DNA of 64,000 bases from SAR324 cluster bacterium (lineage in GTDB: Bacteria > SAR324 > XYD2-FULL-50-16): positions 86,439-150,438 of the forward strand of contig JANQGX010000032.1 in assembly GCA_028282885.1 (NCBI GenBank), given 5' to 3'. The translations under genes were made by a program, and so were the position numbers. The notes beneath the pieces are model-generated. The model had not been told where the DNA came from. It searched no databases and was given only the letters and a program-made list of their open reading frames with translations. Below are positions 6,850 through 63,773 of the stretch, one piece after another. Every line of letters begins with the position of its first letter. The stretch's first letter is position 1.

Positions 6850-8253
6850 ATGTCAGACACCATTTATGATATTGCCGTTATCGGTTCCGGTCCTGCCGGT
6901 GAGAAAGCCGCACTGGAAGCTGCGGGACTGGGAGCCAGTGTAGTTGTTATCGAAAAAGGAATCAGACCGGGGGGAGCTTCGGTTATTACCGGTACTATTC
7001 CCAGCAAGTCGTTGCGGGAGACGGTAAAGCATGTCGAACTCCTTTCCGGTGGCGAGATCAGTGGCATTGATGTCCGTCTTGATCGGAAGCTGACCATACC
7101 GGAGCTGATGAATCACAAAAACAATGTTATCTCCGAGCGGGTGGAGGATATTGTGTCAACCTACGAAAATGCCGGGGTGGATTATGTTTTCGGTAAGGCC
7201 CGCTTTCAAACTCCCCATGAGCTGTTTGTCGACTGTACTGAAAACAGCGAGTCCATGGTCATCAAAGCTGAAAAATTTATCATCGCCGTGGGGACCAATC
7301 CGTACCACCCTGAAGATATCGAATTTGACGGCAAATATATTCTTGATTCGGATACCATTCTGCAGTTGGAAGAGATACCCGAATCGCTTGTCATCATCGG
7401 TGGCGGTGTTATTGGTTGTGAATATGCTTCCATTTTCTGCAGATTGGGCACCAGGGTATCCCTGATTGATCCCAGGGGGGCATTGCTCGATTTCATCGAT
7501 CACGATATTTCCGAAGCCTTGGCAGGTCAAATGAGGGAGGATGGCATCAATCTCTGCCTTGCCTGTAATTACAAGGAAGTAAGAGTGGAAAACGGGTCGG
7601 TTGCTATATACCTGGACGATGGAAATAAGGTCCTGGCTTCTGCCATGCTGTTTGCAAACGGGCGCCAGGGAATGGCAGACGAGTTGAATCTAGACGTATG
7701 CGGGCTGGAGATCAACAGGCGAAATCAACTGGAAGTCAACGACAACTACCAGACCAGGGTTCCCCATATTTATGCCGTCGGAGATGTGATCGGTTTTCCC
7801 TCCCTGGTTTCCGTCAGCAATGAAGAGGGTCGTATGGCCGCCAGAAGTGCGGTATTAGGAGAGCATACCCAAAGGGTTGGATCCAACATCCCTTACGGCA
7901 TTTATACGATTCCCGAGATTTCCATGATCGGTCCTACGGAGAAAGAACTGATCGATCAGGGGGTCTCGTACGGGATTGGAATCTGTCGATTCAAAGACCT
8001 GGCCAGGGGGCTGATCATCGGCGATCGAATCGGGATGGTCAAACTGCTTTTTCACAAGGAAACAAAAGAGCTGCTGGCTGTCCATATGTTTGGTAAAACA
8101 GCATCGGAGCTGGTCCATATTGCCCAGGCCGTGATTCATTACAGGGGTAAGATCGACTATTTCCTGGACAATGTTTTCAATTTTCCCACCCTCTCCTCTT
8201 CCTTCAAGGTCGCCGCCCGGCAGGGATTAATGGAAATTGATCAATCGGATTAA
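6850..8253 (+). CDS. sthA: soluble pyridine nucleotide transhydrogenase
   Basis: Near-collinear similarity to E. coli SthA (IYDIAVIGSGPAGE..., KFIIAVGTNPYHPEDIEFDGKYILDSDTIL..., VIGCEYASIF..., YAVGDVIGFPSL..., IPYGIYTIPEIS...); start reassigned to ATG 6850 by alignment with SthA N-terminus (ORF track gives 6790). Confidence 0.8.
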   Translation: MSDTIYDIAVIGSGPAGEKAALEAAGLGASVVVIEKGIRPGGASVITGTIPSKSLRETVKHVELLSGGEISGIDVRLDRKLTIPELMNHKNNVISERVEDIVSTYENAGVDYVFGKARFQTPHELFVDCTENSESMVIKAEKFIIAVGTNPYHPEDIEFDGKYILDSDTILQLEEIPESLVIIGGGVIGCEYASIFCRLGTRVSLIDPRGALLDFIDHDISEALAGQMREDGINLCLACNYKEVRVENGSVAIYLDDGNKVLASAMLFANGRQGMADELNLDVCGLEINRRNQLEVNDNYQTRVPHIYAVGDVIGFPSLVSVSNEEGRMAARSAVLGEHTQRVGSNIPYGIYTIPEISMIGPTEKELIDQGVSYGIGICRFKDLARGLIIGDRIGMVKLLFHKETKELLAVHMFGKTASELVHIAQAVIHYRGKIDYFLDNVFNFPTLSSSFKVAARQGLMEIDQSD

Positions 8254-11850: not shown

Positions 11851-13992
11851 GTGAACAAACAAAGGGTGCTGAGACTGGGAGTTGTTGTACTGATTATAGG
11901 ATTGATCGGATCCGTTTTCATTTTTGATCTGCAGCAGTATTTTACCCTGGAATATATCAAAAGCAGGCAACAGCTATTCGGCGACTACTACAGGGACAAC
12001 ACGGCATTCACAATCCTGGTGTTTTTGGGGGTTTATGTTATCTCTACTGCCATCTCCATCCCCGGGGCCGCTGTTCTAACCCTGATGGCCGGCGCTCTTT
12101 TTGGCCTCCTCTGGGGAACTGTCATCGTCTCCTTCGCCAGTTCCATCGGGGCAACCCTGGCGTTTATCACCTCCCGCTTTCTTTTGAGGGATTTTGTGCA
12201 AAAGAAGTTCGGGAGCCAGTTGGAAACCATTAACAAAGGGATTCGTAAGGAAGGGGAATACTATCTTTTTACCCTGCGATTGATACCGGTTTTTCCTTTT
12301 TTCCTGATTAATCTCTCTATGGGACTAACACCGATTGGACTGCTCAAGTACTATGTGGTTAGTCAGATCGGAATGCTCCCCGGCACCATTGTTTATGTTT
12401 TCGCCGGAACCCAGTTGGCGAAAGTCGAATCGCTCGGGGGGATTCTGTCACCCGGTCTGATTGCAGCTTTCACCCTTCTGGGACTATTTCCCCTTATCGC
12501 TAAAAAAGGAGTCGCCATGGCTAACTCGCGAAGAGCCCTGAAAAAGTACAAATCTCCCGGGAATTTTGATTATAACGTTGTGGTGATCGGAGCCGGATCC
12601 GGCGGTCTGGTTGCATCGTACATTTCGGCTGCCGTCAAGGCCAAAGTCGTTTTGATCGAGAAGCACAAGATGGGGGGTGATTGCCTGAATACCGGTTGTG
12701 TTCCCAGCAAAGCCCTGATTCGTTCCGCTAAAATGCTATCCTATGCGGAACGGGCAAAGGATTTCGGATTTGAAAAAACCAAGGTGGACTTCGACTTCAA
12801 GACAGTCATGGAGCGGGTAGCCGGGGTGATAAAGAAGGTCGAGCCCCATGATTCCGTTGAACGCTATCAGGATCTTGGCGTGGAGTGTATCACCGGTGAA
12901 GCCGAAATAATCGATCCATATCGTGTCAAGGTAAATGGCAATGTCATTACAACCAAAAACATCGTCGTGGCCAGCGGTGCCTCTCCGTTTGTTCCCCCAA
13001 TTCCGGGTATCGATCAGATGGATTACCTGACCAGTGACACGCTGTGGAACATCAGGGACCTCCCTAAACGTTTGATTATCCTGGGTGGCGGTCCGATCGG
13101 CAGTGAAATGGCTCAGACGTTTGCTCGACTGGGCTCGGAAGTTTCCCAGGTCGAGATGGCGCCTCAAATTCTGATCCGTGAGGATGAAGAGGTCAGTAAT
13201 CTGGTCGCGGAAAAGTTCAGAAAGGAAGGGGTCAAGGTCCTTACCGGGCACCGGGCCAAGGAGTTTCTAAAGGAAGACGGTGAGAAGATCCTGGTTTGTG
13301 AAGCCGAAGGAAAAGATGTCAGGATTCCTTTTGACCAGGTTATCGTAGCAGTCGGTCGCAGGGCGAATACCAAGGGATTCGGACTTGAGGAGCTGGGTGT
13401 TGAAATCGCCAAAAATGGAACCATCTCGCATGATGAGTATCTGAGGACGAATTACCCAAATATCTTCGTTTGTGGCGATGTGGCGGGACCTTATCAATTT
13501 ACCCATACAGCATCCCATCAGGCCTGGTATGCAGCCGTTAATGCTCTCTTTCGACCTTTCAGACAATTCAAGGTGGATTACCGCGTTATTCCCTGGTGTA
13601 CCTTCACTGATCCGGAAGTTGCGCGGGTCGGTTTGAATGAAAAGGAGGCCATGGAAAAGGATATCCCTTATGAAGCCACTGTCTACGGTATCGATGATCT
13701 GGACAGGGCTATCGCTGACAGCGAAGATCACGGATTCATAAAGGTTATAACCCCGCCGGGAAAAGACAAGATACTGGGCGTAACCATTGTTGGTACCCAT
13801 GCGGGCGACCTGATAGCAGAGTTTGTGTTGGCCATGAAGAATGGTCTGGGGCTGGGAAAGATTCTGGGAACCATCCATATCTACCCGACCCTGGGAGAAG
13901 CCAACAAGTATGCGGCTGGTAACTGGCGGAAGAATCACATACCGGAGAGACTGATGAGGTTTCTGGAGAAGTTCCATGCCTGGCGACGATAG
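11851..13992 (+). CDS. bifunctional DedA/TVP38-TMEM64 family membrane protein fused to FAD-dependent pyridine nucleotide-disulfide oxidoreductase
   Basis: 713 aa; N-terminal ~230 aa multi-TM with DedA-like region (...GAAVLTLMAGALFG...), C-terminal ~480 aa with FAD fold YNVVVIGAGSGGLVAS, redox-active disulfide GGDCLNTGCVPSK, NAD fold LIILGGGPIGSEMAQ and dimerisation domain. Confidence 0.8.
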   Translation: MNKQRVLRLGVVVLIIGLIGSVFIFDLQQYFTLEYIKSRQQLFGDYYRDNTAFTILVFLGVYVISTAISIPGAAVLTLMAGALFGLLWGTVIVSFASSIGATLAFITSRFLLRDFVQKKFGSQLETINKGIRKEGEYYLFTLRLIPVFPFFLINLSMGLTPIGLLKYYVVSQIGMLPGTIVYVFAGTQLAKVESLGGILSPGLIAAFTLLGLFPLIAKKGVAMANSRRALKKYKSPGNFDYNVVVIGAGSGGLVASYISAAVKAKVVLIEKHKMGGDCLNTGCVPSKALIRSAKMLSYAERAKDFGFEKTKVDFDFKTVMERVAGVIKKVEPHDSVERYQDLGVECITGEAEIIDPYRVKVNGNVITTKNIVVASGASPFVPPIPGIDQMDYLTSDTLWNIRDLPKRLIILGGGPIGSEMAQTFARLGSEVSQVEMAPQILIREDEEVSNLVAEKFRKEGVKVLTGHRAKEFLKEDGEKILVCEAEGKDVRIPFDQVIVAVGRRANTKGFGLEELGVEIAKNGTISHDEYLRTNYPNIFVCGDVAGPYQFTHTASHQAWYAAVNALFRPFRQFKVDYRVIPWCTFTDPEVARVGLNEKEAMEKDIPYEATVYGIDDLDRAIADSEDHGFIKVITPPGKDKILGVTIVGTHAGDLIAEFVLAMKNGLGLGKILGTIHIYPTLGEANKYAAGNWRKNHIPERLMRFLEKFHAWRR

Positions 13993-21162: not shown

Positions 21163-21813
21163 ATGGATTCAAGCAAGATACTGGATAAGCTCAATGTCAG
21201 GGATGGTATCGTCAATAATCGTCAACATCCCAGCCTCAATCTGCAAGCCAGGGAAGCGGGATTTGAGATCTACAATTTCCTCAGTCAGGATGGGAAACCT
21301 TACTCACTCGGAGATGACGCGGATTACCTGAAACTTTTCATGCAGATGGCTGAAAGCATCTATCTTAACAATGGGACATTCCTTGGAACGTGCCTTGTCG
21401 CTTCCGATATGGGTGGCAGCCGTCTTTTTGTCAAGGAGTTTACCGATCAGGAAAAAGAGGAGTTCAAATATGCGCATGTATGCCTGCTTAGCACCATGAA
21501 AAGGCTTTCTGATGAAAACAGGCCGGAAACCTTCAGCTTTTTCGGAGAGCTGAACCTGGTGGATTCCAAAGAAGAGAAATTCGAAAGAGAATCCAGAAAG
21601 ACCGCCAGGGTTCTCTCCGGAGAGGAACGGGAAAACTGGCTGGAGATCATTGACAAGCGATATCAATTTCTCAAAACCGATGTGTATGTCTATTCGCTGT
21701 TAAAGCTCTTCTCCTGGGGATTTCAGGTCATCGAATCGGAAGGTAATGTCCGGGAAGAGCAGAACCTTGTCAGACCCAACCGACCCAAACCCAGGGGGGC
21801 GAGTCGAAAATAG
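21163..21813 (+). CDS. hypothetical protein
   Basis: 216-aa ORF 24 nt downstream of previous gene, no recognisable motifs. Confidence 0.45.
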   Translation: MDSSKILDKLNVRDGIVNNRQHPSLNLQAREAGFEIYNFLSQDGKPYSLGDDADYLKLFMQMAESIYLNNGTFLGTCLVASDMGGSRLFVKEFTDQEKEEFKYAHVCLLSTMKRLSDENRPETFSFFGELNLVDSKEEKFERESRKTARVLSGEERENWLEIIDKRYQFLKTDVYVYSLLKLFSWGFQVIESEGNVREEQNLVRPNRPKPRGASRK

Positions 21814-21914: not shown

Positions 21915-22424
21915 ATGGATCTCGGAGAAGCTATCAAAACAGCAATTGCGCTGGAAGACAAGATCGTTAACGTCTACACCAAGTACGCAGATAAGTTCAG
22001 CTCACCCGTTGCCAGCAAGATTTTCAAACTGCTGGGCGAAGAGGAAGAAGGCCATACCGCCTATTTAAAGGCGAAACTTGAGCAGTGGCAAAACTCGGGA
22101 AAGATTACCGTTGATGACATCAAAACCATTGTTCCCGACAAAGAGGTGATCAAGGAAAATGTTAAAAAACACAAAGCCGCGGCAAAACAGGCCAACATTG
22201 ATGACGAAATTGAAGTCTTCAAAAAGGCGTTGGAGATGGAAAGCCAAGCTTCGGCTTTTTACAAGGATCTTGTAGGTAAGCTGGCACCTGAAGACCAGGT
22301 TTTGTTCAAACGTTTTATCGAAATTGAAGAGGGACACGAAGCCATTGTCAAAGCCGAAATCGACAATGCACGAGGTTTCGGATTCTGGTTCGATTTTCAG
22401 GAATTTGATCTGGAAAGTGCATAG
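21915..22424 (+). CDS. rubrerythrin/ferritin-like diiron-carboxylate protein (paralog 1)
   Basis: Start at ATG 21915 (AAAAGGAGA RBS); two-repeat E...ExxH architecture (EEEGH; EEGHEAIV); paralogous to 26162..26677 and 28408..28884. Confidence 0.65.
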   Translation: MDLGEAIKTAIALEDKIVNVYTKYADKFSSPVASKIFKLLGEEEEGHTAYLKAKLEQWQNSGKITVDDIKTIVPDKEVIKENVKKHKAAAKQANIDDEIEVFKKALEMESQASAFYKDLVGKLAPEDQVLFKRFIEIEEGHEAIVKAEIDNARGFGFWFDFQEFDLESA

Positions 22425-22522
22425 AAAAAGCTACTTTGACAGAGAATCTGATTGCCAACCGGGCAATGAGCCCGGTTGGATTGAAATGGAAGATTTGAGA
22501 CAATTTAAAACAGGAAAATCTG

Positions 22523-23035
22523 ATGCTTACAGAAAAAATGGAAGCCAAGCTGAACGAGCATATTAATGCCGAACTCTATTCAGCTTATCTGTATCTATCC
22601 ATGTCGGCTTATTTCAAGTCGATTGATCTGCCCGGTTTTGTCAACTGGATGCAAGTACAATTCGAAGAAGAAATGTCCCATGCGATGAAATTCTTTGAGT
22701 TTGTTGATAATATGAACGGTAGAATTCGCCTGGCGACTATCCAGGCGCCGCCTGTGGAATGGGAGTCTCCCGTTGAAGTCTTTCAGGAGACCTATGATCA
22801 TGAGCGTTCGGTCTCCGAACAGATCTTTAAGCTGGTGAGCCTGTCGCTGGAAGAAAATGACCATGCCACCAATAACTTCCTGCAATGGTTTGTTGCAGAG
22901 CAGGTCGAAGAGGAATCATCGGTGAAATCAATCCTCAGTAAGCTGAAATTTATCGGGGATTCCAAGTCAGGACTCTTCATGGTGGACCAGGAGCTGGCCA
23001 AACGGACCGTCTCAACGGACACGGCACCTGTGTAA
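22523..23035 (+). CDS. ftnA: non-heme ferritin
   Basis: 170 aa with classic Ftn ferroxidase-centre residues (...NAELYSAYLYLSMSAY...EEEMSHAMKFFEF...QETYDHE...). Confidence 0.85.
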   Translation: MLTEKMEAKLNEHINAELYSAYLYLSMSAYFKSIDLPGFVNWMQVQFEEEMSHAMKFFEFVDNMNGRIRLATIQAPPVEWESPVEVFQETYDHERSVSEQIFKLVSLSLEENDHATNNFLQWFVAEQVEEESSVKSILSKLKFIGDSKSGLFMVDQELAKRTVSTDTAPV

Positions 23036-23133
23036 CCGAAACCCGGTAAATTGATATCAATTGTAACCGGGCGGGCCCGTGCTATCGGGCCCGTATGCTT
23101 TCCCGGAACTATCCAACCTTTTGACAATCAAAC

Positions 23134-23490
23134 ATGAAAAAAGCAACCATCTATCACAATCCCAAGTGAAGCACCAGTAGAAAAGCACTGGCAGTGCTTG
23201 AAGAGAGTGGTGTGGAATTCCGAATCGTTGAATACCTGAAAAACCCACCTTCGGTGGCTGAATTGAAAAAAATAGCCAAAGGGATCGGAGTCGATCCTGT
23301 TGAATTGCTTCGACCAAAAGACAAACGCTTTAAAGAACTGGGATTGTCCAAGAAAGATGACAGGAGCCAGGATGATTGGTTACGCCTGATGAACAAAAAT
23401 CCCAGTATCATTGAACGTCCCATCGTGGCATATGCAGGTAAATATGCCATGGGAAGACCGCCGGAAAGCATTTGGGAAATTCTGAACTGA
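23134..23490 (+). CDS. arsC: ArsC-family arsenate reductase/thiol-disulfide protein with in-frame TGA (putative selenocysteine) at the catalytic-Cys position
   Basis: ATG 23134...MKKATIYHNPK-TGA(23167-23169)-STSRKALAVLEESGVEFRIVEYLKNPPS... matches E. coli ArsC TIYHNPACGTSRNTLEMI...YLENPPS...; TGA aligns with Cys12; same frame as ORF-track 23194..23490; 7-bp stem-loop 23183..23199 lies 13 nt after TGA (SECIS-like). Confidence 0.65.
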
Positions 23491-23547
23491 TGCGAAGAGA
23501 AACCTCATGCGACAGGCATATTAATCCCAACCCGAACAAGGAAAACA

Positions 23548-25239
23548 ATGGATATTGATATTTCAATAAAAATTGGCGGTGAAGCCGGGCAGGGTATCCA
23601 GACTGTGGGTGACCTCCTGGCCAATGTCTGCCGTGAAGCAGGGCTCTATATCACTGGCATCAATGATTTCGAGTCCAGAATCAGGGGCGGACACAGTTAT
23701 TTTCAGATCAGAATATGCAATACGTCGGTTTCAGCTCCGGAAACCACTGCCCACATGGTGGTTGCGCTGAATGAACAGACCTATGAGTTGCATCACCAGG
23801 ATATTCATGAGGGTGGGCTTGTTATAATGGATGCCCGTGAAGCCCCGGCTGAAAACGTGATTGCGGTTCCCATCAGGGAGTTGGCAGTGGAAGCCGGGGG
23901 CAGGGTGATGGCCAACACGGTTGCTGTCGGTGCTGTGCTCGGTTTGCTGGGTGCCCCTTTTCACATCCTGGAAGGCTTGCTGACCAGACGCTTTTCCAGA
24001 AAAAGCCAACAGATCGTGGATAACAATATTGCAGCTGCCAAACTGGGTTTTGAGGCCGTCAAAGATACTTCTTTCAAATGGTCCTTCGACTGGAACAGGG
24101 GAGAACCCAAGGGAACCCTTATCAACGGTTCTAAAGCGGTAGCTCTCGGGGCTCTGGCTGCAGATTGTCGATTCGCCGCATTTTACCCCATGTCTCCGGC
24201 TACCTCCGTCATGCAGGATCTGAACTCCTTTTCCGGTAAAATTCCCATGATAGTGGAACAGGTGGAGGATGAGATCGCCGCAGTCAACGCCATCATTGGG
24301 GCTTCATATGCCGGGATTCGATCAATGACCTCCACGTCGGGCGGCGGATTTTCCCTGATGGTGGAAGGACTCGGTCTGGCCGGGATTACGGAAACTCCTA
24401 TTGTTGTCGTCGATGCCCAACGACCCGGACCTGCTACCGGATTGCCGACCCGTACCGCCCAACCCGACCTGCTTTTTGCCATCAGGGCGTCCCAGGACGA
24501 ATTCCCCAGGTTTGTGCTGGCCCCGGGATCGCCGGGAGAGGCCTATACCATTACCACCAGGGCGTTCGAACTGGCCGACAAGTACCAGGTGCCGGTTATC
24601 ATCCTGGTTGACCAGTATCTCTGCGACTCTCTCTTTATCGAAGAGAACCCATTTAAAATTCCCACCGAGATTAATCGTTATACCGTCACCGACGAGGATA
24701 TGGCTGACCCGAGACAATATGTCCGTTATGCCCTGACCGAAGACGGCGTCTCTCCAAGAGCCCTGCCATGCAATGGTGAAGCCCTGGTGATGGCCTCCGG
24801 GAATGAGCATACGGAAGACGGCCATATCAGTGAAGATCCTGCCAACCGGGTTGCCATGATGGATAAACGCGCCGCTAAAATCCCGAGGATGATTGATGAA
24901 CTGGATCCGCCCGAAACTTATCATGGTGAAAGCGAATTGCTGGTTGTGGGATGGGGATCCACCAGGGGCGCTATCAGAGAAGCGGTAGAGATCCTGAGAA
25001 ACGGGGGAATGGATATCGGCTGCCTGCATTTCACGGACATCTGGCCGTTTCCCACAGATGTTGTGACGGCCGCACTTGAAAAAGCCGAACGGTTTGTCAT
25101 GGTGGAGCAAAACTCATCGGCCCAGTTTGGACAGTTGATCAGGGAACAAACCGGTCTGTCTTACTCCGCATCAATCCTCAAATATGACGGCAGGCCTTTC
25201 TATACTGATGAGGTTGTTGAGAAAATCAAACAGATATAA
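23548..25239 (+). CDS. 2-oxoacid:ferredoxin oxidoreductase, fused gamma/alpha subunit
   Basis: 563 aa; N-terminal gamma-like domain (MDIDISIKIGGEAGQGIQTVGDLLA...) followed by alpha (KorA-like) domains. Confidence 0.8.
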   Translation: MDIDISIKIGGEAGQGIQTVGDLLANVCREAGLYITGINDFESRIRGGHSYFQIRICNTSVSAPETTAHMVVALNEQTYELHHQDIHEGGLVIMDAREAPAENVIAVPIRELAVEAGGRVMANTVAVGAVLGLLGAPFHILEGLLTRRFSRKSQQIVDNNIAAAKLGFEAVKDTSFKWSFDWNRGEPKGTLINGSKAVALGALAADCRFAAFYPMSPATSVMQDLNSFSGKIPMIVEQVEDEIAAVNAIIGASYAGIRSMTSTSGGGFSLMVEGLGLAGITETPIVVVDAQRPGPATGLPTRTAQPDLLFAIRASQDEFPRFVLAPGSPGEAYTITTRAFELADKYQVPVIILVDQYLCDSLFIEENPFKIPTEINRYTVTDEDMADPRQYVRYALTEDGVSPRALPCNGEALVMASGNEHTEDGHISEDPANRVAMMDKRAAKIPRMIDELDPPETYHGESELLVVGWGSTRGAIREAVEILRNGGMDIGCLHFTDIWPFPTDVVTAALEKAERFVMVEQNSSAQFGQLIREQTGLSYSASILKYDGRPFYTDEVVEKIKQI

Positions 25240-59357: not shown

Positions 59358-59630
59358 TTGTTTGGACTATTGGTTTTCAGGTCGGTTTTTGAATTGTTTT
59401 GGATAAACCGATAATCAATCAAATGCCAGGGGTGATTATCCATTTGGATCAGGCTTCATGGTACAGGAAAAGCTCCAGAACCTCAAAAGGTATTTACAGG
59501 AGCTTTCCTGCTCGGGATTGCTAAGATTTTGGGGGCAATTTCTAATTAAAATGTCAACAGAAAATGCAGCCCTTCCTACTGCAGTAGAAGCCACACATAA
59601 AGGTCAGAATAATAATGATTCTTTTATCTG

Positions 59631-62256
59631 GTCTCATTCCACGCTCCCGCGGGGGGAGTGACGAGTTATCATTCTGGAAAACCATTCAGCAAGCGGAGTT
59701 TCAATCCACGCTCCCGCGGGGGGAGCGACCCAGGCCCATATGGCGAGAGTTGGTATTTATGGAGTTTCAATCCACGCTCCAGCGGGGGGAGCGACGCCGT
59801 CTTATCGCCTCAATCGAAGTATTGTCATAGTTTCAATCCACGCTCCAGCGGGGGGAGCGACGATCTGTTGGAAAAAATTAAATATACCCAGCGAGGCTTC
59901 AATCCACGCTCCCGCGGGGGGAGTGACGCGTCTGCAATCTTTTGTTCGTCGATTTCATACCAGTTTCAATCCACGCTCCAGCGGGGGGAGCGACTCAATA
60001 GCAATGCGTATTTCCAGAGCTGCTAAAGTTTCAATCCACGCTCCCGCGGGGGGAGCGACAAACTTTTGATGATGAATCGACTGTCCAGGGCTGTTTCAAT
60101 CCACGCTCCAGCGGGGGGAGCGACTTCATCGGAGGGGATGATTTTCTCTTTGGAGTCATAGTTTCAATCCACGCTCCCGCGGGGGGAGCGACTTTTGGGC
60201 GCAACGGTATTTTTACCAAACACTTATTGTTTCAATCCACGCTCCCGCGGGGGGAGCGACTGATTTTCGATTAACCGGCGCTTCAGCAGGGTCTTGTTTC
60301 AATCCACGCTCCCGCGGGGGGAGCGACCACTGATACTGAGGGGGTTTTCACTTTCACCGAAGTTTCAATCCACGCTCCCGCGGGGGGAGCGACGAGGTAA
60401 GGTGGAGATTGTATCAATCAGCTGATTGTGTTTCAATCCACGCTCCCGCGGGGGGAGCGACGAAGTTGATCGGGAAAGACTGCAATTCGGTCAACTGTTT
60501 CAATCCACGCTCCCGCGGGGGGAGCGACTGTCAGTTCCCTACAGCATAGGGAAATCAAAGAAGTTTCAATCCACGCTCCCGCGGGGGGAGCGACTTATGT
60601 TCAATCCAGCGGGAGCGATGATGTCAACTGTTTCAATCCACGCTCCCGCGGGGGGAGCGACCCGAGATCGGAAAGACAATCTTGATCGTTTCATAGTTTC
60701 AATCCACGCTCCCGCGGGGGGAGCGACCACCGTTGCTCCTATTACAGCAAATGATCAAATTTAGTTTCAATCCACGCTCCCGCGGGGGGAGCGACGGATT
60801 ACTTTATTTCTTCATGCTCGATTTTTTCAAGTTTCAATCCACGCTCCCGCGGGGGGAGCGACCACTCATAACAATGGTATCTGGAAATGATGAAATAGTT
60901 TCAATCCACGCTCCCGCGGGGGGAGCGACGAGTTTGCTTCCTTGAGCGCCCCATCTATCTTGATGTTTCAATCCACGCTCCCGCGGGGGGAGCGACGAAG
61001 TAGGATTCAGAGACTTTAGCCGGATCAGTGGGTTTCAATCCACGCTCCCGCGGGGGGAGCGACATCACATAGCCTTTCTTGATATACATTCCAGGTGTGT
61101 TTCAATCCACGCTCCCGCGGGGGGAGCGACGAAACTGGATGCCAGGGACTTGTGGTTTGGAATGTTTCAATCCACGCTCCCGCGGGGGGAGCGACATGGA
61201 AGATAAAATCGTTGAACTAACCCCCGAAGTTTCAATCCACGCTCCCGCGGGGGGAGCGACACGATTGCCCCATTAAACAGTCTGACTATCCTATCGTTTC
61301 AATCCACGCTCCCGCGGGGGGAGCGACTTGGTGTAATTCTGGATTATCCATTCCATTAATGGTTTCAATCCACGCTCCCGCGGGGGGAGCGACGTTCAGG
61401 ATGCCAATCTTTCCGCTCATGTTTATAGTTTCAATCCACGCTCCCGCGGGGGGAGCGACCGAATTTCAGCCGATCCTGTTCATTGCAGATGAGTTTCAAT
61501 CCACGCTCCCGCGGGGGGAGCGACTAAACATAGAGATCATCAAGAACGGCAATTAAAAGTTTCAATCCACGCTCCCGCGGGGGGAGCGACGCAAGCTTCA
61601 AAAAGGCCCATGCTTCAAAGACGGAGTTTCAATCCACGCTCCCGCGGGGGGAGCGACTTTTAAACATATTCCGAGACGTTCTCAAATTAATGTTTCAATC
61701 CACGCTCCCGCGGGGGGAGCGACACTTCCTTGATATTTATCATCTCTCCTTCGACGTCGTTTCAATCCACGCTCCCGCGGGGGGAGCGACCCTCTGTTCA
61801 GGGCTCCGGAAGCTTCGAAATATTGTTTCAATCCACGCTCCCGCGGGGGGAGCGACACTGAAATATTCTGTTGAAAAGCCATTGTTGGATAGTTTCAATC
61901 CACGCTCCCGCGGGGGGAGCGACGCAAAAAATGCAAAACTGCAGTTTCAAAAAAATGGTTTCAATCCACGCTCCCGCGGGGGGAGCGACCATCAAAGAAA
62001 CGCTCTTCTTTGTGATATCCAGTGTTTCAATCCACGCTCCCGCGGGGGGAGCGACTTTTTCTGCTTCGGGTATTTGCGGGCAATAGCGGTGTTTCAATCC
62101 ACGCTCCCGCGGGGGGAGCGACTCGCTGTCTCTTGCGACTGAAAGCGAACCTAGAACTGTTTCAATCCACGCTCCCGCGGGGGGAGCGACTCCAGGTAGA
62201 ATCGAGTATTATCACCGCTGTATCGTTTCAATCCACGCTCCCGCGGGGGGAGCGAC
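59631..62256 (-). CRISPR. type I-C CRISPR array, 40 repeats / 39 spacers
   Basis: 32-bp repeat, plus-strand form GTTTCAATCCACGCTCCCGCGGGGGGAGCGAC = reverse complement of I-C-type GTCGCTCCCCCCGCGGGAGCGTGGATTGAAAC; spacers 33-36 nt; degenerate/variant repeats (GTCTCATTCC..., ...CCAGCGG..., ...GAGTGAC) cluster at low-coordinate (leader-distal) end. Confidence 0.95.
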
Positions 62257-62445
62257 TGTAGCGGTATTAAAGTTAGATTTTTCAATCCATTAAGCTACTT
62301 GTACCGCTAACCACTGTTTTCTTCGTTAAACAAGAAAACGTATTTTTTATCAAATCAATGAAAATCATTATTTTAATCAAATATTTCAGAATGATACTGT
62401 ACTGCGCTAATCCAACGGCAACTTCTTATGAACTTAGGGGTAGCG
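62257..62445 (-). promoter_or_regulatory. CRISPR leader (AT-rich) between cas2 and array
   Basis: AT-rich 189-bp segment adjacent to newest repeat; contains a truncated repeat remnant TTTCAATCCA at ~62277..62289. Confidence 0.5.
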
Positions 62446-62751
62446 CTATACGATTATTGGATCATCGGGAGAAGAAACTGCTTTAGCTCCGAAATGTTCA
62501 ACCCTGCGTTTCCAATTTGAACCAAGGTAGTAGAAACGAAGTGAATCCTCTTCGGGGTAATAGGTGCTCAACAAACGAGCTTTCAATTTTTCCCATTGTC
62601 CCGGATCGACATTACACTCGAAGACTGAATACTGAACACGTTGTCCAAAATCCAGACAGTGTTTGGCAATTCGCCTCAGTCTTCGTTCTCCGTCTCTCTC
62701 AATTGTTGCCACGTCATAAGATACAAGAACCAGCATTTGAATCATCTCCAA
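62446..62751 (-). CDS. cas2: CRISPR-associated endoribonuclease Cas2
   Basis: 101 aa, MLVLVSYDV... Cas2 N-terminal motif; overlaps cas1 end. Confidence 0.9.
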   Translation of the reverse strand: MEMIQMLVLVSYDVATIERDGERRLRRIAKHCLDFGQRVQYSVFECNVDPGQWEKLKARLLSTYYPEEDSLRFYYLGSNWKRRVEHFGAKAVSSPDDPIIV

Positions 62752-63773
62752 ATAAAAGCAGGATAATAGTCCAGATCACCTCTGATATGTCTTGATAGCA
62801 GTATGGTTTGTACATGGAATAGCAGTCCGATCTTGATCTTTTCCTTCAAAATCGGATGGTTAAGTGTTTCCTGTTTTCGCTTCTGGTAGGCTGTGAGCAA
62901 TGTTTTCCTTGCTGTGTCAGACATTAACACAGCTCCGTTTTCAGTATTCTTAAAATCGCTAATCTTCAGTTGCTGAAGATTGATGAGGCTTAGAGCAAGG
63001 CGATCCCCAAGAAAAGCCCTGAACTCTTCCAGCAGATCCAAAGCCAGACTTTGTCGGCCGGGGCGGTCTCTATGTAGAAAACCAACATAAGGATCTAATC
63101 CCACACCTTCCAGCGCAGAAACGCAATCTTGTAACATAATGGCGTAAATGAATGAAAGAAGGGCATTTACCGGATCTCTCGGAGGTCTTCTGTTTCTTCC
63201 TGCAAATTTAAAATCATCCTTTTGCTGTGTAATCAGATTTTGAAAATTCTTAAAATAGCAGTTGGCAGCTTCACCTTCTCTACCACGAAGAGAATCAAGA
63301 TCCGCTATGTTCTGAACTTTTCCAAGTGTTCTTTTTAATTCCGCGACGGCGATTTTGAGATCTGTAGCTCCGGCACATTCAGGATTATTACGCAACATTC
63401 TCTGGAATACCGTCCGGCTGTTAGAGATTTTTGAAGCTACTATGAACCGGGATATACTTGTCGATTTAACGGGGTCATCAGCCCATCGGTATTGCTCCCT
63501 TCTCAACAGCACGTTACCGGTTTGAGGTCCCTGAATCCTTGCCTGGAATCGACCATATTCACTGAAATGAGCTATACCAATGCCGTTCTGGCTGCAGGCA
63601 AGCATCAGTTGAGGTGAAAGCGATATCCTTCCGAGACAGAAGATATTGGATAAGGTCAATAGAGGAAGCTGCAGTGCTTTTTTTCTTTCAATCTCCACAA
63701 CCACGGTTTCCCGATCTTTATGGAGGTATGCTCCTTCTGTAGTTACAAAGAGTGTATTCAGTAGTTTCTTCAA
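62742..63773 (-). CDS. cas1: CRISPR-associated endonuclease Cas1 (type I-C)
   Basis: 343 aa, MKKLLNTLFVTTEGAYL... typical Cas1 N-terminus and conserved acidic residues; TTG start overlapping cas4 stop. Confidence 0.9.
   Translation of the reverse strand: MKKLLNTLFVTTEGAYLHKDRETVVVEIERKKALQLPLLTLSNIFCLGRISLSPQLMLACSQNGIGIAHFSEYGRFQARIQGPQTGNVLLRREQYRWADDPVKSTSISRFIVASKISNSRTVFQRMLRNNPECAGATDLKIAVAELKRTLGKVQNIADLDSLRGREGEAANCYFKNFQNLITQQKDDFKFAGRNRRPPRDPVNALLSFIYAIMLQDCVSALEGVGLDPYVGFLHRDRPGRQSLALDLLEEFRAFLGDRLALSLINLQQLKISDFKNTENGAVLMSDTARKTLLTAYQKRKQETLNHPILKEKIKIGLLFHVQTILLSRHIRGDLDYYPAFIWR

Follow-up and report, generated by a model that had tools for sequence, protein, structure and literature searches.

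An ArsC-family gene with an in-frame UGA at the catalytic cysteine codon: a predicted selenoprotein within an oxygen-defence gene island

The stretch of DNA analysed here (64 kb; hereafter the window) carries an ArsC-family gene whose twelfth codon is TGA. Translation from the ATG at position 23134 gives MKKATIYHNPK, the TGA at 23167-23169 and then, in one and the same frame, STSRKALAVLEESG... up to a second TGA at 23488-23490, so that the start codon, the in-frame TGA and the same-frame continuation proposed in an earlier reading of the letters alone (hereafter the sequence-only reading) are borne out by translation. With selenocysteine (Sec, U) at this codon, the product reads MKKATIYHNPKUSTSRKAL...ESIWEILN. 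The ORF list starts the gene at a downstream GTG and gives it a length of 98 aa, and the database entry P0002 is this 98-aa version (99% identity across the 83% of the query that is covered), just as the sequence-only reading had anticipated in stating that a gene caller would truncate the protein at this GTG and lose its active site. The GTG falls inside the 3' arm of a candidate hairpin (Table 1), and inspection of the sequence ahead of it revealed no Shine-Dalgarno-like motif. A promoter and terminator scan of positions 22400-23700 returned nothing exceeding background.

Table 1. Coordinates of the features discussed, in window numbering
Feature	Position	Strand	Remarks
ArsC-family CDS, complete, predicted selenoprotein	23134..23490	+	118 codons including Sec12, plus stop
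Predicted Sec12 codon, in-frame UGA	23167..23169	+	opposite catalytic Cys12 of ArsC
Candidate bacterial SECIS hairpin	23183..23199	+	AAGCACU-GGC-AGUGCUU, 7-bp stem, apical loop GGC
GTG used as start by gene callers	23194..23196	+	from ORF list; internal Val21 codon
Predicted true stop, second UGA	23488..23490	+	no comparable hairpin 3' of UGA
Pyridine-nucleotide disulfide oxidoreductase	6850-8250	+	
Pyridine-nucleotide disulfide oxidoreductase, N-terminal VTT/DedA membrane domain fused	11851-13989	+	
TPP riboswitch RF00059	40936-41026	+	61.2 bits vs gathering 54.3; sole Rfam match in window
cas2	62446-62751	-	Pfam E = 6e-26; adjoins CRISPR array
cas1	62742-63773	-	Pfam E = 3e-103; adjoins CRISPR array

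The gene, referred to below as ArsC(U), is embedded in an oxygen-defence island. Upstream of it lie a rhodanese-rubrerythrin fusion, a conserved 216-aa hypothetical protein, a rubrerythrin-like protein and a ferritin; it is followed by the alpha and beta subunits of a 2-oxoacid:ferredoxin oxidoreductase (OFOR), by a rubrerythrin on the minus strand and, further downstream, by a rubredoxin-rubrerythrin, a rubrerythrin-like protein, a flavodiiron protein and cytochrome bd subunits I and II. The oxidative-stress cluster claimed in the sequence-only reading can thus be recognised around ArsC(U). No arsR, arsB, acr3, arsA or other ars gene was encountered among the window ORFs scanned, and the ars-operon association used as a criterion for the ArsC family is absent from this neighbourhood. 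The island is syntenic in those relatives for which enough flanking DNA is available (L003/L013, L005/L014 and L007, and partly L008), and among forms of the gene that encode Cys, that of L011 has OFOR alpha after it and that of L012 has the rubrerythrin-like gene before it. Since the syntenic relatives show 65-90% identity in every island gene, they represent one lineage and do not constitute independent evidence. A Sec orthologue from a SAR324 genome (L015:3229-3585) is located between a Lon protease gene and an ORF of 229 aa (L015:3669-4358). By eye, the latter combines a flavin-reductase-like N-terminus with a C-terminal rubredoxin motif (CQICGY...CPICSAAK) and, if this reading of its sequence holds, would extend the oxygen-defence type of neighbour to an unrelated lineage.

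Several further observations were made in and around the island. The 216-aa protein (21163-21813, plus strand) has no Pfam match; L005 and L007 encode it at 48-59% identity, and L003 lacks it. The intergenic region between ferritin and ArsC(U) contains a perfect 14-bp palindrome, AATTGATATCAATT (23049-23062), and, beyond it, an inverted repeat rich in G+C, GGGCCCG...CGGGCCC (23070-23095). As a regulon operator the palindrome was rejected, its 8 matches in the window (at most three mismatches) against 6.4 expected showing no enrichment. Downstream, the terminal TGA at 23488 is in frame with the ATG of OFOR alpha at 23548, with 19 sense codons in between; a read-through fusion of ArsC and OFOR was discarded as well, because the shared frame occurs here and in L003 and not in L005, L007 and L011, and is regarded as coincidence. 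Elsewhere in the window, positions 59620-62300 hold a CRISPR array of approximately 40 repeats of GTTTCAATCCACGCTCCCGCGGGGGGAGCGAC, with a start-to-start spacing of 65-68 nt; a few initial repeats on the 59.6-kb side are degenerate.

For profile searches and alignments of the product, U was read as C. Using this setting, the product scored 122.8 bits against TIGR00014 (arsenate reductase, glutaredoxin), above the curated cut-off of 106.05, and matched PF03960 (ArsC) with E = 2.8e-18 (66.4 versus a cut-off of 24). It remained below the thresholds of TIGR01617 (Spx/MgsR family; 63.1, cut-off 75.05), of NF002459, which served as the Spx/MgsR test (42.7 versus 123), and of the YffB-type and nitrogenase-associated relatives, and the profile search gave no match to NF041106. 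The active-site motif is U-S-T-S, i.e. UxxS, and the CxxC redox switch of Spx/MgsR is absent. The best solved relatives, 3rdw (4.8e-28) and 3f0i (3.4e-25), align over the full length of the product, and E. coli R773 ArsC (PDB 1i9d/1jzw) aligns with residues 2-117 at E = 4e-19. The UGA stands opposite Cys12 of 1i9d/1jzw (TIYHNPaCgTSR) and opposite the Cys of 3rdw and 3f0i, in agreement with the N-terminal match to E. coli ArsC, and the TGA at Cys12, that the sequence-only reading had put forward. Three arginines, R60, R95 and R108, are invariant across a 10-sequence alignment of the clade and align with the LLR, RPIV and CRP segments of 1i9d, respectively; we take them to be the counterparts of the arsenate-binding Arg60, Arg94 and Arg107 of R773 ArsC. 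As judged by profile and alignment, the product is a glutaredoxin-type member of the ArsC family, with the short YfgD/3RDW-like subgroup as its nearest relatives.

We next turn to the conservation of the UGA, for which homologues were drawn from protein databases, from a collection of one genome per species and from JGI metagenomes. The same TGA is found in two assemblies obtained from separate sequencing runs (L001 and L002; SRR20820739 and SRR20820733) and at the homologous codon in eight further orthologues (L003, L005, L007, L008, L009, L010, L015 and L174); the distinct Sec forms number nine, with protein identities of 60-81%. The most divergent of them, L015 from a SAR324 MAG (60% identity), was yielded by the scan of one genome per species and JGI metagenomes, the metagenome scan providing no additional Sec form except a copy of L003. 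About 150 other homologues, counted as relatives with a recognisable motif in the genome and metagenome scans, encode Cys at the Sec12 codon (TGC in 88, TGT in 62), and none has Trp or Gly. The sequence-only reading had left it to such an alignment whether relatives carry Cys, Sec or a shortened N-terminus: Cys is present in close and distant homologues, and UGA in the orthologues.

One explanation is that TGC or TGT was misread as TGA in sequencing or assembly. The codon is indeed one base away from the Cys codons, and the Cys orthologues P0001 and P0003 exist; set against this, the TGA is identical in the two assemblies from different sequencing runs and recurs in eight other orthologues from unrelated samples. 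We therefore regard the likelihood of an error as negligible, and the error at 23167-23169 considered in the sequence-only reading is for practical purposes excluded by these independent assemblies and orthologues.

Public records bear the marks of this codon in several ways. Full-length database homologues with Cys comprise P0001 (82% identity), P0003 and P0006, of which the orthologues P0001 and P0003 share the N-terminus MKKA.IYHNPKCSTSRKAL. Shortened calls of 92-100 aa (P0004, P0005, P0008, P0010, P0039 and P0062) are also found, and the DNA behind each of them carries a TGA at the Sec12 codon after a conserved M-K-K-A-x-I-[YF]-H-N-P-[KR]. Finally, the NCBI-derived record P0007 (L010:1523-1882) displays a W at the Sec position; the codon at this position in the L010 DNA is TGA, from which it follows that P0007 was translated with a code in which TGA specifies Trp.

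These data also bear on the possibility that the UGA is a true stop, in which case the product would be the 98-aa protein initiated at the GTG, or the gene would be a pseudogene, and the upstream codons would be leader or non-coding sequence. The 98-aa ORF is what every gene caller reports, and a stop would be in keeping with our finding no Sec machinery in the window or the fetched loci, which represent part of the genome. However, a 98-aa product would be devoid of the catalytic residue and of the first beta-strand of the fold, its GTG is preceded by no ribosome-binding motif, and the Cys orthologues are full-length with an identical N-terminus. Moreover, the upstream codons are conserved in the nine orthologues, all of which have the TGA: the nine codons preceding the UGA show a pS of 0.71, with synonymous change saturated, and a pN of 0.15. 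The resulting pN/pS of 0.21 is similar to the 0.29 of the remaining gene (0.27 in the eight codons just downstream of the UGA), which indicates that the region upstream of the UGA is translated in frame. Orthologues beginning at the equivalent of 23194, which the sequence-only reading had named as an outcome that would speak against it, are excluded by the retention of the UGA and of the upstream coding sequence. A true stop is accordingly very improbable in our estimation, and the public 98-aa annotation is a mis-annotated fragment without the active site.

In a neighbour-joining tree, three Cys forms are nested among the nine Sec forms, and the outgroups are all Cys. This topology suggests a single clade in which Sec and Cys may have been switched repeatedly.

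The bSECISearch model of bacterial SECIS elements comprises a hairpin directly 3' of the UGA with a small, G-containing apical loop. At the present locus, the candidate hairpin starts 13 nt after the UGA and, counted from the U of the UGA, spans nt 17-33 with the loop at nt 24-26. It is present in both the MFE and the centroid fold of positions 23160-23225 (-17.3 kcal/mol, z = -2.2; equally stable folds in 7 of 200 shuffles), and folding has thereby recovered the 7-bp stem-loop at SECIS spacing claimed in the sequence-only reading. All nine Sec forms have the hairpin in the same register, from nt 17/18 to nt 32/33, with an apical loop GGN that begins with GG and stems from an invariant CUG-G. 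Across these forms 88.9% of the cells are paired, versus 22-56% (maximum 55.6%) when the 3' arm is slid. In L005, L010 and L174 the hairpin forms only if a single nucleotide of the 3' arm, a U in the case of L005 and L010, is bulged out. The stem contains one compensatory change, G-C to A-U in SAR324, together with several G-U changes, and covariation is not significant, the observed score being attained by 57 of 500 shuffles.

Mean folding energies of the local hairpin are -6.1 kcal/mol for the Sec forms and -3.2 kcal/mol at the same position of 137 Cys homologues (Mann-Whitney p = 0.0015); this greater stability in Sec forms is only supportive since the Sec sequences are related and not phylogenetically independent. 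The hairpin is itself made up of codons, and Cys forms have kept a portion of it. DNA was at hand for two of the three nested Cys forms, L011 (365-721, corresponding to P0001) and L012 (746-1102, corresponding to P0003). Both retain most of the SECIS-like hairpin in a weakened state, with a U-U mismatch in L011 and loss of the closing pair in L012, and such relic hairpins suggest a recent replacement of Sec by Cys.

When the 40 nt from the Sec UGA were folded in isolation (-10.3 kcal/mol, z = -1.8), the MFE structure was a longer helix whose 5' arm starts at the UGA itself and which competes with the hairpin; this 5' arm would be inside the ribosome when the UGA occupies the A site. The 40 nt from the terminal UGA at 23488 gave -5.5 kcal/mol (z = -0.6). 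An outer helix, GCACCA/UGGUGU (23171-23176 with 23208-23213), was considered as part of the element and rejected, as it is unconserved in the orthologues. No Rfam SECIS match was obtained in a scan of the window at the gathering threshold or in a permissive scan of 23120-23280, which returned one chance match.

As to the machinery for Sec insertion, ARAGORN detected no tRNA of any kind in the 64-kb window, and neither tRNA-Sec (ARAGORN) nor SelD (tblastn with an approximate E. coli query sequence) was found in 174 sequences amounting to 1.8 Mb. Likewise, selA, selB, selD and tRNA-Sec were absent from the window and the fetched loci, which together cover part of the genome, and approximately 7 kb past the left edge of the window (L173) contain no sel genes. 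We infer that the host is capable of Sec decoding. A scan of the window for ORFs continuing through TGA produced no convincing case of a second selenoprotein. In the syntenic L003, an AhpC/TSA (Prx-like) gene (L003:1445-2119, plus strand) about 3.4 kb upstream of the L003 ArsC(U) is divided by the gene caller at an in-frame TGA into pieces of 46 aa and 171 aa; translation across this codon yields ...VLLVFYRGHW-U-PFCVNQL..., with a UxxC motif. This gene is a candidate for a second selenoprotein of a known type and lends indirect support to the use of Sec in the L003 lineage.

A further possibility is that the UGA specifies a standard amino acid, either Trp or Gly under a reassigned code or Cys or Trp through near-cognate read-through. 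Sec machinery was not found in the window or the fetched loci, i.e. in part of the genome, which would suit this explanation, as would the W in P0007, although that residue arose through translation with another code. Against it, TGA terminates 16 of the 47 long ORFs in the window, ArsC(U) among them, from which we conclude that the genetic code is standard. Furthermore, the homologues are all Cys, never Trp or Gly, and a conserved hairpin at SECIS spacing goes with the UGA. Finally, the pairing of UGA with Cys in a redox active site is a classic selenoprotein signature (PMC1088965). We consider decoding as a standard amino acid to be improbable.

Taken together, these results favour a model in which positions 23134-23490 encode a 118-residue glutaredoxin-type ArsC protein with selenocysteine in place of the catalytic Cys12, a reading to which we assign a probability of about 0.88 on the basis of sequence comparison and folding. 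With the UGA in the A site, extrapolation from the established Sec pathway would place the first ~12-15 nt downstream inside the mRNA channel, and nt 17-33 would then be free to fold as a compact hairpin. SelB-GTP carrying Sec-tRNA(Sec) would bind this hairpin and deliver Sec in competition with release factor 2, and the second UGA at 23488, having no such hairpin, would terminate translation. In the folded protein, the selenolate of Sec12, located beside the arginine oxyanion pocket, may attack arsenate, a similar oxyanion or an oxidant, and the resulting Se-adduct would be resolved by a thiol reductant. Either of the two pyridine-nucleotide disulfide oxidoreductases in the window could be an enzyme that regenerates a thiol reductant relevant to an ArsC-type protein.

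The gene context renders a redox role plausible, as opposed to an arsenate role. ArsC(U) may be a genuine selenoprotein and yet act as a selenol redox component of the oxygen/peroxide defence island instead of an arsenic-resistance enzyme, for example as a peroxidase-like protein or as an oxidoreductase of proteins or low-molecular-weight thiols working with OFOR and the rubrerythrins. In the window and in the syntenic relatives, the gene is flanked by ferritin on one side and OFOR alpha/beta on the other, OFOR alpha likewise comes next after the Cys form L011, and the gene downstream of the SAR324 orthologue resembles, by eye, a flavin-reductase/rubredoxin fusion. The lack of arsR, arsB, acr3 and arsA among the scanned window ORFs points in the same direction, and the closest solved relatives, 3rdw and 3f0i, are short ArsC-family proteins, 3rdw having been deposited as a putative arsenate reductase. 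On the other hand, the product scores above the arsC equivalog cut-off with the three arsenate-binding arginines all in place, and synteny drawn mostly from one close lineage (65-90% identity) counts for little as independent support for a functional link. We consider this role possible, though short of an even chance. A broader proposal assigns the whole clade of Sec-containing, YfgD-like ArsC proteins a dedicated selenol redox function in the oxygen/peroxide defence of an anaerobe, with coupling to OFOR and rubrerythrin/ferritin and no part in arsenic detoxification; it is put forward tentatively and appears less likely than not. If this proposal holds, the short-ArsC (YfgD-type) subfamily, which is large and uncharacterised, would gain its first physiological role.

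ArsC(U) can be compared with several known systems. R773 ArsC and ArsC(U) have the fold and family in common, together with the nucleophile at position 12 and the arginine equivalents. They differ in that ArsC(U) has Sec for Cys12, comprises 118 instead of 141 aa with no C-terminal extension, and is not part of an ars operon. The similarity to 3rdw and 3f0i is closer still in length (~117-121 aa) and in the common motifs IYHNP[KR]-C/U-S-x-SR and GRPPE, whereas these two proteins carry Cys where ArsC(U) carries Sec; to our knowledge, the physiological function of the YfgD-like 3rdw and 3f0i is unproven. Spx/MgsR and the "arsenate reductase-like UxxC" selenoproteins (cd03032/NF041106) belong to the same ArsC/Spx superfamily fold and include some selenoproteins, but have CxxC or UxxC in place of the UxxS of ArsC(U).

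With regard to the hairpin, the SECIS of E. coli fdhF, in the description attributed to Huttenhofer and Bock, reportedly places Gs in its small apical loop, at a distance of ~21-24 nt from the U of the UGA, and is said to carry a bulged U on its 5' arm. Akin to it, the ArsC(U) hairpin follows closely on the UGA within the coding region and has apical Gs. The two share no sequence similarity, the loop being GGN versus GGUC and the bulge, in L005, L010 and L174, being on the 3' arm and not on the 5' arm as in fdhF, and the ArsC(U) hairpin is a candidate element only.

The closest counterpart is the UxxS family of selenoproteins. Zhang, Fomenko & Gladyshev 2005 (PMC1088965) introduces "Arsenate reductase" (COG1393, UxxS) as a new Sargasso Sea selenoprotein family with 14 sequences and a drawn SECIS, and describes the bacterial SECIS consensus as a hairpin that directly follows the UGA and has G in its small apical loop. 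The GOS study of 2008 lists 77 "ArsC 1, pfam03960, UxxS" selenoproteins versus 784 Cys homologues (PMC2398784), ArsC-like selenoproteins have been noted in Desulfotalea psychrophila and Desulfuromonas acetoxidans (PMC1794560), and a 2026 review lists "Arsenate reductase, TIGR00014, UxxS" as largely uncharacterised functionally (PMC13188914). The statement in the sequence-only reading that Sec-containing ArsC-like proteins have been predicted in some anaerobes therefore needs qualifying, in that the family (arsenate reductase/ArsC 1, UxxS) has carried a name since 2005 and counts 77 members in the GOS data.

Membership in TIGR00014, Sec for the catalytic Cys, a SECIS-like hairpin with an apical G and widespread Cys homologues are all common to this family and to ArsC(U). 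Nothing essential differs apart from the origin of the ArsC(U) copy in an uncultured lineage and its placement in a conserved oxygen-defence island, a context of which the passages searched in PMC1088965, PMC2398784 and PMC13188914 offer no description. By its predicted features, ArsC(U) agrees with the catalogued UxxS family at every sequence-level criterion and is not a new kind of system, and the picture of known selenoprotein families and Sec decoding is unchanged by it. The only mildly new element is its conserved island placement, with the possibility of a role in redox defence rather than in arsenic resistance. Recognition of the Sec codon restores a catalytic residue that is absent from public records (the 98-aa P0002 and others, and Trp in P0007), and the nine Sec and three nested Cys orthologues would provide a compact example of repeated Sec/Cys switching. 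The fixed place of ArsC(U) in an oxygen-defence island offers a testable hint on the function of Sec-containing ArsC proteins.
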